Virus record (IMG/VR): IMGVR_UViG_2698536657_000017
Coordinates: 1 to 35,026 of that record
Direction: 5' to 3' (one strand)
DNA from: a virus
Lineage: Duplodnaviria > Heunggongvirae > Uroviricota > Caudoviricetes
DNA: 35,026 nucleotides
This document shows, piece by piece, positions 15,001 through 21,000 of the stretch (the first letter of the stretch is position 1; the number at the start of each line of letters is the position of its first letter). Made by a program: the position numbers.

Positions 15001-18000
15001 TGAATTCACCGACTTATCGTTCCTTGCTGACAAAAATGTTGATGGATTTCTCAACAAGATAAAGCTGCTTAATCTTCCTCCCGAAGAACTGGAAAAAATC
15101 AAGGCCAGCAAAGAGGAAGAGATAGACACGCGACTTTCCCGTCTGAATAACGATATTTACCAGAATGAAAAGGGGCTTGGTGAAAGCGATCGTGTTTACC
15201 TTGTTGTGGCTACCGTTATTGCAACGTTGGGGATTCCGGGAAAGTTAGCACCGCTGGATAAAAAAGAACTGACCTCTTCAACGGAGGAGGACTTGCGTGA
15301 TGGTGATATTATTTTCAGGAAAATAAGGAATTTTTTAAGGCTGAAAGCTGTTCCTGAAACAAAAAGAGAAATGATTTTGCGCTCGTTGCAAAATACGCTG
15401 TGGACTGAAAACATTAACAAACCAGTCAACGGTGAAAGCCAGTTAAAGCGCGTGTTTGTTAAAGTTGTTGATGATCTTGGGGAGTATTACAAAATCGGAC
15501 TGACCACTGATTTTACGGGCAAACTGTTTAATGAGATGTATCGCTGGCTTGGATTTACGCAGGACAAACTCAATGACGTCGTTCTGACACCACCTTATGT
15601 TGCCACATTGCTGGCACGACTCGCCAGAGTAAACAAAGATTCCTATGTGTGGGATTTTGCTACAGGTTCTGCGGGATTGCTTGTGGCTGCAATGAATGAA
15701 ATGCTCATTGACGCCAGAGAAAATATTCACTCACCGAATGAACTACAACTTAAGGAAGCGCAAATCAAGGCTGAACAGCTTCTTGGCCTTGAGGTGTTAT
15801 CCAGTATTTATATGCTGGCCATCCTGAATATGATTTTGATGGGGGATGGTAGCTCGAATATCCTCAATAAAGACTCGCTAGCCGATTTTGACGGCAAGTA
15901 TGGATTTGGGAAAACAGGAGAAAAATTCCCTGCGGACGCATTTATTCTCAATCCTCCGTATTCAGCTAAAGGTAACGGCATGATTTTCGTGCAGAAGGCG
16001 CTGTCGATGATGGATAAAGGCTATGCTGCAGTGATTATCCAGAGTTCAGCCGGCACAGGAAAGGCTACGGAGTACAACAAAAAAATACTCAAGGAAAATA
16101 CCTTGCTGGCAAGCATCAAAATGCCTGCGGATCTGTTTATTGGTAAATCAAGCGTTCAGACGTACATTTACGTTTTTCAGGTAAAAATTCCGCATAACGC
16201 GAAACAGGCTGTTAAGTTTATCGACTTTTCCAATGACGGCTATGCTCGCTCTAATCGCAAAAAGGCAAGAAACAATCTTGTTGATGCCGATCGTGCAAAA
16301 GAGCGTTATCAGGAGGTTGTGGATCTGGTTCACTTCGGGAAAGGTTGCCTTAATATCTTTACGGAGGATGAATATTTTGAGGGAACAATCGATCCTGATA
16401 GTGGTGAGGACTGGAATCAGACCAGGCCAGTAGATGCTAGGCCAACGCTGGATGATTTCAAAAAGACGGTAGGTGATTACCTTGCATGGGAGGTCTCGCA
16501 ATTACTGAAAAAACAAGGTGAAAACAATTTTGCGGGAAAGTAAATTCCCCGCTCAGCGATAAATTAAGAAGCGTTGAGTGGGGAGAGTTCAGGATTGGCG
16601 ATTTGTTCTATGTGAGCACAGGCTCGCTTATCTCCTCAGGAAGATTAAAACCAGGCAAAATTAAACGTGTTTCAGCAAAGAGCGATCAAAACGGTATCAT
16701 CGGAGAGTTTGATACCGAGTTTATGGATGATGCAAGGCATTATGAAAATTTTATAAGCGTTAATTTTTTTGGAGATGCTTTTTATCATCCTTATTGTGCC
16801 AGCGTAGAAATGAAGGTGCATGTTCTTACATTAAAATCAAGTAAGTCCGACTTTAATGCAAAGCGCGGACTGTATGTTGCCAGTATGATTAATAAAGCTT
16901 TAAAGGGGCGTTTTAATTATGGTCAACAGTTATCGAGTTCCAAACTCAGAGATGGAGAATATTTCATCTCATTACCAGTGAAAAATAATGAAATTGACTG
17001 GTTTTTTATGGATAATTATATAGAAGAGCTGGAAGCGGCCCATATAGAAGAGCTGGAAGCTTACTTGCTGGTTAGCGGACTCGCGGACTCGCGGACTCGC
17101 GGACTCGCGGACTCGCGGACTCGCGGACTCGCGGACTGATAAGCTATGAGCTTACACCGCAGGAATATAACGCGATTGAGCTATTAAATAGCAATAATCT
17201 TATGTGGGGCACTTATAACCTCAAAAAGTTATTTGGCCCCGCAATAAGAGGTAAGCGTCTGAAAAACGCAGATCGTATTCCCGGATCCTTGCCTTTTGTT
17301 ACTGCGGGTGAAGGCAATGAAGGTATTTCTGCATTTATCAGTAATGATGTTGTTGTATTCCCTGAAAATACCATTACGATAGATATGTTTGGCTCCGCAA
17401 AATACAGAAATTATGAGTATGGTGCAGATGACCATGTGGCAGTTGTTCATACAGAATTCTTTGACAGAAATGCCGTTATTTTCATAACAGCATCAATTCA
17501 TAAGTCTTCTTGTACCGGAAAGTTCAACTACGGGAGAAATTTCTATGCAAAAGATGCCGACGAGTTAATGGTATCTTTGCCGTCAAAAGATAATAACCCT
17601 GATTATTCTTTCATGGAGACGCTAATTTTAGCAGTACATAAACTGGTCATCAAAGATGTTGTCCAGTACACTGATAAAAAGCTGGTAGCGTACAGGCAGA
17701 TTACATCTGAGAAGGTCGTTTAGTGCAAATCCCCACCTGACAGGGTGGGGAATGGTCAGGTTATCGTGCCCTGATGCAGAAAAACAGTTTACAATCGTAA
17801 AAATCATCATATCATGACAAAAGTGGTTACATTGCCACGCAGCCGAACCCGCCGATGCGCGGGTTTTTTGTATCCGGAATCCTGTGAGTTATACGGAAAG
17901 TACACAGAAAGGAAGGTGCGACCGCAATTAATAACAAAATCTTAAAAATTGCATATGGCACTATTAGTTTTCTAAATATTGTATATTTTGAGTATTGCAG

Positions 18001-21000
18001 GATATCCCCTGTAACGAAGTTTGCGTAACAGCATTTTACTCTACGAGTTTGCCAGCCTCCCCCAGTGGGCTGGCTTTTTTTATCTGATGCGCTTCACATC
18101 AGGGTGACGTTCTGTTGCCGCTTCATGGAAAATGTCGCTGAGCCAGCCCGGTATCTCGTCTTCTGTCATATCGTCTGGAATGACAATATCGTATAACCGG
18201 GAGAATTTTCGTTCTGTCAGGTCTGCCCGGAAGACCAGCCAGTGATCACCTTCACGTTTGACACCAATATGTCGACCAAAGACGTTGTAGATTAGCACTA
18301 TCGACCTCTTTCAGGAATTGTGTAACTGAGATGACAGATTCAGATTTCGTCAATAAATGCAAAATGTCAATCCTGAGATCATGGTGAGCTATCTGGCGGT
18401 TTTTTATATCTGTTTAACGGGGGATGTTACATACCTCACAATTCAGTCAGTTGAAGGTTGTCTGCCCGGATGAGAATTTGTTAGAAAATTTCTGCATGGT
18501 GAATCCCCCTGAGCGGAGGGGCATATCAGCGACAGGTGGTTGGTTATATCCCTTATCTGGTGCGGGTTCAGGTGCTGATACTGAACTCACCGGGAGGCAC
18601 CCGGCACCATGCAATGAACGGTACATAGCGCTACTCTTCAGCCCCTCTCCGGAGGGGCTTTTTAATGAGGGGAAGACACTGGGCAGTGAAATGTTAAATC
18701 ACTCACAATTCAGGTAGTTGACGGTTGTCTGCTTGGCTGAGAATTTGTAAAAAAAATCCTGCATGGTGAATCCCCCTGTGCGGAGGGGCGACTGGTGAAT
18801 GGTATGATCTCTTTGATGATCGTAAGCGAGAATACGCGGGTTTGGTGGCACCAGGCCGAACTCACCGGGAGGCACCCGGCACCATGCAGTATACAGAGAT
18901 TAGGCATATACCAAGGCCCCTCATAGCAGGGGCCTTTTTACATGCAAAAAAAGCCGCCCCGGGAAGAGCGGTTGGCAAGAAGAAAAGCAATATGAACAAT
19001 TAATTAACGATGGGAATAATACCTTAGAGTAATCACCTTGCGCAACTGTAAGGGCATATTTCATCTTTGCGGGCTGTTTTTCCGGGTGACTTCTGTGTTT
19101 CCGGAGGCCAGCCTGTACCTTCTCTGACTCAGAACATTATCCCGGCCGGGAGGATTCATGGCATTTAAACACTATGACGTGGTCAGGGCGGCGTCGCCGT
19201 CAGACCTTGCGGAACGAATAACTCAAAAACTGAAGGAAGGGTGGCAGCCTTATGGTAGTGCGCTGATTTCGACAGCTGGTTATGGTGCGGAGTTCATCCA
19301 GCCAGTTGTGAGTGAGGGGAGCATCTCATCACCAGAGGAGCCAGGCAACCGTCCGACGACCTCAGCGCCTTCTGTTGCGCCAGAATATTACTATGTGATC
19401 GCGCTTGCTGGTCAGTCCAATGGTATGTCATACGGTGAGGGACTGCCATTACCGGATACATTCGACAGCCCTGATCCACGTATTAAACAGTTAGCGCGTC
19501 GCAGTACGGTGACACCGGGAGGTGCTGCATGTATCTATAACGATATTATCCCGGCAGATCACTGTCTCCATGATGTGGAGGATATGACAGGGCTTAATCA
19601 TCCCAAAGCGGATTTATCGAAAGGTCAGTACGGCTGTGTGGGACAGGGGCTGCATATCGCCAAAAAGCTTCTGCCATTTATACCGGCGAATGCGGGCATT
19701 CTTCTTGTTCCGTGCTGCCGTGGTGGTTCAGCTTTCACCACCGGAACCGATGGCACATACAGTGACACTACTGGCGCCTCAGAGAGTTCCACCCGCTGGG
19801 GGGTGGGCAGGCCGCTGTATAAGGACCTCATTGGTCGTACAAAAGCCGCGCTGGCGAAGAATCCGAAAAATGTGCTGCTTGCCGTGGTATGGATGCAAGG
19901 GGAATTTGATTTTAACGGAACGCCAGCGAATCATGCAGCCCGTTTTACAGAAGTGGTGGATCAATACCGTGCGGACCTTGCAGATATGGCGGGGCAGTGT
20001 GTGGGTGGCTCAGCTGACAGTGTTCCCTGGATTTGTGGAGACACAACATATTTCTGGAAGCAGAAGAACGAAACGGCGTACCAGACGGTGTACGGTAGTT
20101 ACAAAAATAAAACGGAAAAGAATATCCATTTCGTGCCGTTCATGACCGATGAGAACGGGGTGAATGTGCCGACGAACAAACCGGAAGAAGACCCGGATAT
20201 TCCGGATATCGGGTATTACGGTTCAAAATGGCGAACGGACAGAAGCACCTGGACATCTCAGGACAGGGCCAGTCATTTCAGTTCATGGGCTCGCCGTGGG
20301 ATTATTTCCGACCGTCTGGCAACGGCGATTCTGAGCTGCGCGGGTAAGTCTTCTGCGTTTGTTAATGGTACTGCCGGGGTGGTTGTTCCAGACAGACCGG
20401 TTACCACCTCAGAGTCTGTAATTTTTTACGATGCCAAAAAAGCTTCAGACAATCAGCTGAAACCTTATGGCTGGGACGGTATGGATGGCAGACGCACACT
20501 GGTTGATGACAGCGGCAATAAAGCTCTGCGAATTGAGAAAAATAACAGCGCGAAATCCTGGTCAATGTACTGTGATATTGCTGCAGACAAGGCAAAACTT
20601 TTACTGGAAAAAGGCGGGGAAATTGCTGTCCGGTTTAAAATCCCCGAAAACGTCAATCTTGAGACAACCAGAAACAAGTATGCCTTTGGTTTGTACTGGC
20701 GAATAGCGGAATGGCCGGGTGAGGGTGGTGAAGGCTATCTGAGTTCTTTCTTTGTCCAGACAGATAAAGCCAGTATTGATGTTGCATACCATCATACAGT
20801 TAATCAACAAAAAGAACTTGGCACGTTTGGCGCATTCGACCATGACTGGCATACGCTTGCATTTAAATTTAAGGGCAGTAACAGCATTAATGTTACTCCG
20901 GTGCTTGATGGTGTGGATGGACAGGCGTTTGACCTGGTGAAATGGGCCAATACTGCTAATGGACTCAACAGGTTTGTCATTACGGATATTACAGGTAGTG

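Follow-up and report, generated by a model that had tools for sequence, protein, structure and literature searches.

What is the function of the non-coding DNA at positions 17724 to 18081 of IMG/VR virus record IMGVR_UViG_2698536657_000017, immediately downstream of the specificity (S) gene of a Type IIG restriction-modification (R-M) cassette? The window (the whole 35,026-nt stretch that was analysed) is a lambdoid prophage of the Escherichia coli type that lacks the Shiga toxin (stx) genes. A preliminary description, made from the sequence alone, reported a perfect 8-bp hairpin, two intrinsic terminators and, between these, a possible short transcript with a promoter-like site of its own. 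It correctly treated the stretch as non-coding and regulatory, but failed to recognise it as a PR'-qut-tR' late control region. Positions 17788 to 18081 are very probably the late-gene control module of a 933W-type (Q933-family) lambdoid prophage, composed of the late promoter PR', the Q-utilization site qut, the small RNA (sRNA) StxS and the late terminator tR', and this module would be expected to work as it does in its homologs. The element is already known and well characterised as the control region of Shiga-toxin-type lambdoid phages. The main value of the analysis is a correct annotation, in which PR', qut, StxS and tR' replace two terminators and a possible transcript.

Sequence homology is the principal evidence. 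Using megablast, 933W positions 20658-20957 align with window positions 17780-18080 at 93.7% identity over 301 nt. Such matches occur in 291 phage records, nearly all from Stx-converting phages and including 933W, VT2-Sakai and Min27. Two E. coli prophages (one of them FHI_NMBU_10) are 97.2% identical to the window over 540 nt; both have an intact Q gene before the module and the same DUF7661 gene after it. The region is present in 686 of 5426 complete E. coli genomes. The conserved positions of the individual elements can be read directly from the 933W record (AF125520): this annotates pR', qut and two possible rho-independent terminators, all four of which map one-to-one onto the window (Table 1), and the annotation agrees feature by feature with independent promoter and terminator scans.

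In the promoter scan, TTTACA-16-TATCAT was the best sigma-70 match of the region (10 of 12 consensus positions). This strongest site, upstream of the first terminator, was overlooked when the promoter of the preliminary description was chosen. Both hairpins proposed there as terminators are real. The consensus scan recovered the first (hairpin 1 in Table 1), which is also one of the two possible terminators of 933W, and the second (8 pairs, -15.4 kcal/mol), and each combines a G+C-rich stem-loop with a T-run, as an intrinsic terminator should. Terminator-like sites number six in the 3-kb region compared with 2.5 +/- 1.5 in shuffled sequences.

GenBank records annotate this module inconsistently. 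The tR' annotated in AM051322 (Nil3) corresponds to 17924-17992, and the -35 and -10 annotated in AP004402 (Stx2 phage I) correspond to 17956-17981; both clash with 933W and with the transcript ends mapped by differential RNA sequencing (dRNA-seq) and Term-seq. Given these inconsistencies, it is the experimental study of the Stx2a and Stx1 prophages of E. coli O157:H7 Sakai (Sy, Lan & Tree 2020, PNAS; PMC7547250) that decides. In Sp5 and Sp15 of Sakai, the distance from the PR' start (dRNA-seq) to the tR' 3' end (Term-seq) is 258 nt (PMC7547250). From the A of AGTGG, seven bases past TATCAT, to the last T of tR' there are exactly 258 nt in 933W/Sakai and 260 nt in the window (A17822 to T18081), with three single-base indels between the window and 933W. 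The Sakai coordinates given in that study are offset by about 142 nt from NC_002695.2, and this mapping relies on the 258-nt spacing. The match in spacing identifies the second terminator as tR' and the whole interval as the StxS precursor, and places the first terminator inside the leader. The proposed short transcript thus survives in part. A transcript ending at the second terminator is supported by the Term-seq 3' end in homologs that are 94-97% identical (PMC7547250), but it would not be bracketed by the two terminators: it would start at PR', near 17822, and run through the first terminator to tR'.

For the start site, 3' end, processing, Hfq binding and targets, we rely on the literature concerning these homologs, and the corresponding entries in Table 1 should be read as putative. 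In Sakai, the leader, StxS_L, binds Hfq and is cut by RNase E at GU/AUU (+173) to give a stable StxS_S of about 74 nt (PMC7547250). StxS_S activates rpoS via the site used by DsrA, RprA and ArcZ, as tested with compensatory mutations, and represses stx1B; StxS is also found in some non-toxigenic phages (PMC7547250).

The StxS seed of the window is intact and complementary to rpoS. In a seed-restricted duplex calculation with the rpoS leader taken from an E. coli genome, the predicted pairing is -30.7 kcal/mol compared with -24.8 kcal/mol for the 933W allele, and none of 500 shuffled sequences scored as well. In the full-length RNA duplex prediction against rpoS, shuffled sequences scored equally well. 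The allele itself differs from that of 933W beside the seed (GAUAUCCCC at 18001-18009 instead of GAUAACCC), which corresponds to a predicted rpoS pairing stronger by about 6 kcal/mol; the same variant occurs in one other IMG/VR locus (L027). An sRNA that activates rpoS and has been studied in enterohaemorrhagic E. coli would be carried here by a toxin-negative prophage, as an allele predicted to pair somewhat better with its target.

Rfam 15 gave no match in 17724-18081 at gathering thresholds. A permissive scan returned only weak matches to DsrA, RprA, Qrr and isrK and no family was assigned; over the StxS_S segment the best sub-threshold scores were 24.4 bits for RprA (threshold 70) and 19.2 bits for DsrA (threshold 60). 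Two small open reading frames (ORFs) were considered and rejected as conserved genes: one of 43 aa at 17814, whose ATG lies upstream of the start site, and one of 30 aa at 17995, whose frame is broken by allelic indels. Since alleles differ by indels (for example, TATCCCC and TAACCC), a conserved ORF in the module is ruled out.

The following sequence of events can be proposed for this prophage. PR' would be constitutive, with its start at about A17822. Polymerase would, in the lysogen, pass the sigma-dependent pause/qut and then the promoter-proximal hairpin and U-tract (hairpin 1) before terminating at tR', and would produce a 260-nt leader, the StxS_L homolog. RNase E cleavage at GU/AUU would leave a stable Hfq-binding 3' fragment of about 80-88 nt, whose seed would pair with the rpoS leader site of DsrA, RprA and ArcZ and should raise RpoS. 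On induction, Q would load at PR' and permit read-through of hairpin 1, tR' and the terminators of the STnc100 copies further downstream into the esterase, lysis and morphogenesis genes. Transcripts reading through from the upstream cassette past the 8-bp hairpin would end at either hairpin 1 or tR'. We infer that this prophage has an active module.

Table 1. Position of the late control module and of neighbouring features in the window, with the 933W (AF125520) annotation that maps onto them.
Feature	Position	Strand	Details	933W annotation and mapped window position
Q antiterminator gene	13504-13929	+	141 aa, PF06530, E = 2.1e-45; presumed trans-acting partner of PR'	
Cargo between Q and PR'	13926-17723	+	hok/sok, Type IIG restriction-methylase and split specificity gene	
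hok/sok	13960-14284	+	Rfam sok match 13960-14134; Hok 14129-14284	
Type IIG restriction-methylase gene	14459-16543	+	694 aa; PADLOC REase_MTase_IIG, E = 7e-234	
Specificity gene, split in two ORFs	16603-17139 and 17202-17723	+	R-M S subunit	
Allele-specific 3' flank of specificity gene	17724-17779	+	56 nt; no homology to 933W	
8-bp hairpin	17730-17751	+	No T-run; possible 3' stem-loop of S-gene mRNA	
Q933-type gene remnant	17778-17800	+	Last codons, TAA stop 17798-17800; overlaps PR' -35 and spacer	
Late promoter PR'	17788-17815	+	-35 TTTACA 17788-17793, 16-bp spacer, -10 TATCAT 17810-17815	pR', 'putative late promoter', 20666-20693; 17788-17815
PR' transcription start (putative)	17822	+	A, 7 nt past -10; by homology	
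StxS precursor (StxS_L homolog), PR'-to-tR' leader	17822-18081	+	260 nt; by homology	
qut (putative)	17829-17836	+	Mapped from AF125520; overlaps -10-like TACATT in initially transcribed region	qut, 'putative Q-utilization', 20707-20714; 17829-17836
Hairpin 1 (first terminator-like site)	17845-17872	+	+24 to +51 of PR' transcript; stem 17845-17866, T's to 17869 in consensus scan	'possible rho-independent terminator', 20726-20748; 17848-17870
RNase E site GU/AUU (putative)	17992-17996	+	Equivalent to +173 of StxS_L; cut between 17993 and 17994, by homologous position	
Processed StxS (StxS_S homolog)	17994-18081	+	Contains seed CCCCUGUAACGAAGUUU at 18006-18022	
tR', late terminator and StxS 3' end	18051-18081	+	Stem 18051-18074, seven T's 18075-18081	Second possible rho-independent terminator, 20929-20957; 18051-18079
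DUF7661 gene	18080-18298	-	72 aa, E = 1.2e-28; convergent; right edge of module	

The order of genes 5' of the module is Q, hok/sok, the Type IIG restriction-methylase gene and two half-size specificity ORFs. The gene directly upstream is thus an R-M specificity gene, and its interpretation as a holin ('S') gene was rejected. On the 3' side are the convergent DUF7661 gene, two STnc100 copies and a sialate-esterase-type gene, followed by long ORFs at the positions expected for late genes, of which the esterase is identified and the others are uncharacterised. The lone 72-aa minus-strand ORF was correctly described as abutting the second terminator. It encodes a DUF7661 protein, and the final bases of the T-run are shared with its TAA stop (18080-18082). 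The window and 933W, together with most relatives, diverge exactly at the tR' terminator, which is the right mosaic joint of the module. From tR' (18081) to the esterase gene (19158) there is no ORF capable of encoding a Shiga toxin, and the window contains no tRNA genes. The STnc100 (RF02076) copies are arranged in tandem between the DUF7661 and esterase genes (18465-18670 and 18732-18945; 153 and 200 bits), with a terminator-like hairpin at the end of each. STnc100 has been related, in a 2026 preprint, to the PasD sRNAs, whose neighbours are esterase genes.

To compare the module among phages, we collected loci by an exact-match scan for a 17-nt block, TGGTTACATTGCCACGC, within which qut lies. 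This retrieved 107 IMG/VR stretches and about 110 loci overall. As the block was the search pattern, its ubiquity among the loci reflects selection and is not evidence of conservation. The sequence downstream of the block comes in 36 distinct leader variants, in which the hairpin 1 and tR' stems hardly vary; changes are either in loops or, for the most part, compatible with wobble pairing, with one or two isolated stem pairs disrupted. The only folds consistent with the variants are hairpin 1, the first stem of StxS_S and tR'; a long-range central helix, seen when a single sequence is folded, is contradicted by many of them.

Clearly, a number of points weigh against the identification of a working PR'-qut-StxS-tR' module and they are best considered together. 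The Q allele is diverged (141 aa, about 75% DNA identity to Q933 and a different C-terminus) and is not adjacent to PR'. Hairpin 1 resembles a competent intrinsic terminator at +51, and efficient termination there would leave little full-length leader. A few bases of the promoter region differ from 933W. Among the 36 aligned variants no base pair has changed on both sides, the sequences being too similar to reveal compensatory covariation. StxS has no Rfam model and so receives no independent family score. The expression mapping stems from the Sakai homologs, and activity is extended to the window by homology. Finally, the role suggested below for the 8-bp hairpin has no comparative support, all its copies being identical.

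An alternative that deserves consideration is that the whole stretch is nothing more than the 3' untranslated region of the R-M cassette with its terminators, with the hairpin and both terminators serving to end the restriction-methylase-specificity (M-S) operon. The stretch does lie directly 3' of the S gene on the same strand and, as the 8-bp hairpin lacks a T-run, cassette transcripts probably reach hairpin 1 and stop there. However, from 17778 on, the DNA is independent of the cassette. This position, where the Q933-type remnant begins, is the left edge of homology to 933W. In 87 of about 110 loci the module directly follows Q and there is no cassette, while in other loci the junction at this point, just 5' of the -35, is with a different cargo or a different S allele. 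The module also has a strong promoter of its own, and experiments on the homologs have defined it there as a transcription unit. We consider this alternative improbable.

The upstream contexts illustrate this independence. Several unrelated kinds of DNA are found 5' of the -35, each with its junction no more than a few bases away from it: the 3' end of Q933, with its stop codon in the PR' spacer (87 loci); an S allele of the E2855 type, with its stop codon abutting the -35 (11 loci); the S allele of the window, with its 56-nt tail and hairpin (the window and 3 loci); a DnaD_N-like ORF of 197-219 aa (8 loci); and a lambda-Q-like gene (1 locus). The DnaD_N ORF occupies the Q-PR' gap at, for example, 9855-10448 of L055 and 4795-5454 of L047, and also in L103 and L042; one of these ORFs has an HTH_36 match in addition. 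The lambda-Q-like gene, in L110, is a 276-aa ORF, judged by eye from its N-terminal sequence, located 240 nt upstream of a 933W-type PR'. This PR' retains the last 25 or so nucleotides of a Q933 gene, and the locus is possibly a mosaic in which Q and promoter are mismatched.

The 8-bp hairpin, TCCCCACC-TGACAG-GGTGGGGA, is present exactly where it had been described. It also lacks a T-run, as stated: it is followed by ATGGTCAGG on the plus strand and ATTTGCAC on the minus strand, and the terminator scan did not report it. As RNA it would form 9 pairs (one of them G-U) with a free energy of -17.9 kcal/mol (z = -3.2). When composition is disregarded, perfect 8-bp hairpins are no rarity (the window has 8, versus 3.7 +/- 2.0 in dinucleotide shuffles); those that are G+C-rich are in excess (5 versus 0.3 +/- 0.5). 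The 3' flank that carries the hairpin is common only to loci with the same S allele (L005, L025 and L100) and occurs in 7 of 5426 E. coli genomes; the hairpin is absent from the other cassette alleles. The second S ORF has homologs with 60-70% identity in Neisseria, Selenomonas, Bacteroidetes and others, and the sequence that follows them is unrelated. Two other roles were rejected. A repeated element is excluded by its occurrence in only 7 of the 5426 genomes, and a minus-strand terminator of the DUF7661 gene by the lack of a T-run on that strand and by the presence of the hairpin in loci without this gene. With all copies identical, the function of the hairpin can only be guessed. We tentatively place it outside the late module, as part of the 56-nt tail of one Type IIG specificity allele, where the likeliest of the possible roles would be a 3' stem-loop stabilising or ending that mRNA.

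A second alternative accepts the identity of the module but regards it as an inactive relic, in which insertion of the cassette has uncoupled PR' from Q and the prophage is defective. The distance to a diverged Q allele, the frameshifted S gene of the cargo and the mosaic joints on both flanks of the module are in its favour. The Q gene is 3.86 kb from PR' instead of overlapping it as in 933W. Q is, however, a diffusible protein that acts in trans and loads at promoter DNA, so that this distance should not matter. The promoter hexamers, pause element, RNase E site, seed and both terminators are all intact, and the window has an intact Q gene and long ORFs, including the identified esterase gene, at the expected late-gene positions downstream. 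The same Q-cassette-PR' order is found in 27 complete E. coli genomes and in 14 other loci, 12 of which are IMG/VR viral contigs. We therefore consider the relic very unlikely; Q and PR' are presumed to be compatible in this prophage.

The Q-cassette-PR' arrangement (hok/sok and Type IIG R-M) is worth noting in its own right. Its frequency in complete E. coli genomes is 27 in 5426. The 14 loci, which include the E. coli genome loci L005 and L006, comprise 11 of the E2855 type and 3 of the window type; cassette-bearing loci include L005, L006, L014, L027, L030, L050, L056, L059 and L068. In the two genomes with this order that were examined, tRNA genes, an esterase gene and lysis genes follow. 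We found no description of this arrangement in the literature. A strong promoter-like site, TTGAAA-16-TAGAAT (13926-13953), overlaps the Q stop codon (TGA, 13927-13929) and is suitably placed for a hok mRNA start at about 13960, where the Rfam sok/hok-leader match begins. A search of the Type IIG enzyme against PDB sequences gave no matches.

The specificity gene (16603-17723) contains a perfect 8-bp tandem repeat, GCGGACTC, at 17075-17137. There are 7 full units in the window, 23 in E. coli OkiPb01696 (L005) and 26 in an IMG/VR contig (L025), and none of these three states is in frame. Varying the unit number in silico joins the half ORFs into a single S protein of 370 or 378 aa at 6 or 9 units and gives a truncated one at 5, 7 or 8; S homologs elsewhere are full-length (372-433 aa). 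The repeat is a candidate slipped-strand phase-variation switch in a prophage-borne Type IIG/BcgI-like system. A defence cassette between the Q gene and the promoter on which Q acts, with a specificity gene carrying a repeat of variable length, provides a modest lead. This context is relevant to the carriage of lysogen-expressed cargo by lambdoid prophages and leaves the identification of the stretch as a late control module unchanged.

The behaviour of hairpin 1 raises a further question. In three IMG/VR loci (L030, L056 and L098), PR' and the pause block are followed by a variant hairpin 1 with a weaker stem (GAATCCGCCGATGAGCGGGCTTTTTT) and then by STnc100-like sequence; the mosaic joint is directly after the hairpin 1 T-run and there is no StxS. 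Retention of PR' and hairpin 1 without StxS suggests that PR'-qut-hairpin 1 is inherited as one unit. The published work reports a 3' end at +258 only and does not mention hairpin 1 as an end (PMC7547250); searching the literature on Q82 and promoter-proximal terminators turned up nothing that concerns hairpin 1. Two linked proposals can be made. First, PR', qut and hairpin 1 (17788-17872) may form an autonomous, separately inherited module, in which hairpin 1 would be the true first late terminator, releasing an unreported RNA of about 50 nt, and StxS would arise only from polymerases that escape it. Second, cargo expressed in the lysogen (here hok/sok and a BcgI-like Type IIG system, elsewhere the DnaD_N-like gene) may repeatedly insert into the few bases that separate Q from the PR' -35, outside the Q-controlled late operon and in the path of read-through from the early operon. 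Taken jointly, we regard these proposals as speculative and rather unlikely to hold as a pair.

The remaining alternative concerns the internal promoter. The TTGCAT-17-CTAAAT site of the preliminary description exists but lies two bases to the left of the position given (17949-17977 on the plus strand, not 17951-17979). As a promoter it does not hold up: it matches 6 of 12 consensus positions (3 of 6 in each hexamer), lacks the A at position 2 of the second hexamer and is below the scan threshold; in most relatives the first hexamer is TCGCAT, TCTCAT, TATCAT or TTGCAC. We judge it non-functional. An independent small transcript ending at the second terminator and starting either from this site or from TATATT (17982-17987), which would set the start at A17994, the very 5' end seen by dRNA-seq, is the least probable alternative of all and is rejected, since neither hexamer is conserved (TATATT is TGTATT in 11 of the 36 variants, including the commonest), the short species' 5' end was recovered by RLM-RACE without pyrophosphatase (TAP) and is thus monophosphorylated, and the precursor builds up in an rne-ts strain (PMC7547250). 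By analogy with these homologs, the stable short species is a product of RNase E processing and not of an internal promoter.

The closest known system is the StxS/PR'-tR' region of Sakai Sp5 and Sp15 (PMC7547250), which is homologous and 94-97% identical to the window. The promoter hexamers and their spacing are the same, as are the terminator and the RNase E motif at its homologous position; the distance from start to terminator is 258 nt in Sakai and 260 nt in the window. The core of the rpoS seed, UGUAACGAA, is common to both. In the window the loop beside the seed is AUAUCCCC instead of AUAACCC, which adds predicted rpoS pairs. The surroundings differ: the window has the DUF7661 gene, two STnc100 copies and the esterase gene in place of the stx operon and tRNA genes downstream of the Sakai modules, and its Q gene (141 aa, with a different C-terminus) is separated from PR' by the 3.8-kb hok/sok and Type IIG cassette. 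The PR' spacer of 933W (AF125520; Plunkett et al. 1999) contains the Q stop codon, and of that Q gene the window keeps only the last 23 or so nucleotides. A short PF06530 Q gene (about 144 aa expected) is present in the same prophage, at 141 aa; its adjacency to the module is usual but does not define the RNA. The Q of the window belongs to PF06530 as opposed to PF03589 for lambda-type Q (Pas preprint).

The window module follows the same logic as the PR'-tR' leader of lambda, with which no sequence relationship is expected. The lambda leader (6S RNA) is made from a constitutive late promoter with a sigma-dependent promoter-proximal pause for Q loading, and is terminated as a short leader in the lysogen; we know of no trans-acting sRNA function for it. 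DsrA, RprA and ArcZ, which activate rpoS translation from the core genome, are complementary to the same rpoS leader site as StxS, and DsrA shares UGUAACGAA with StxS_S. StxS is nevertheless not a member of the DsrA or RprA families (19-24 bits against gathering thresholds of 60-70), and it is processed from a phage leader instead of having a gene to itself.

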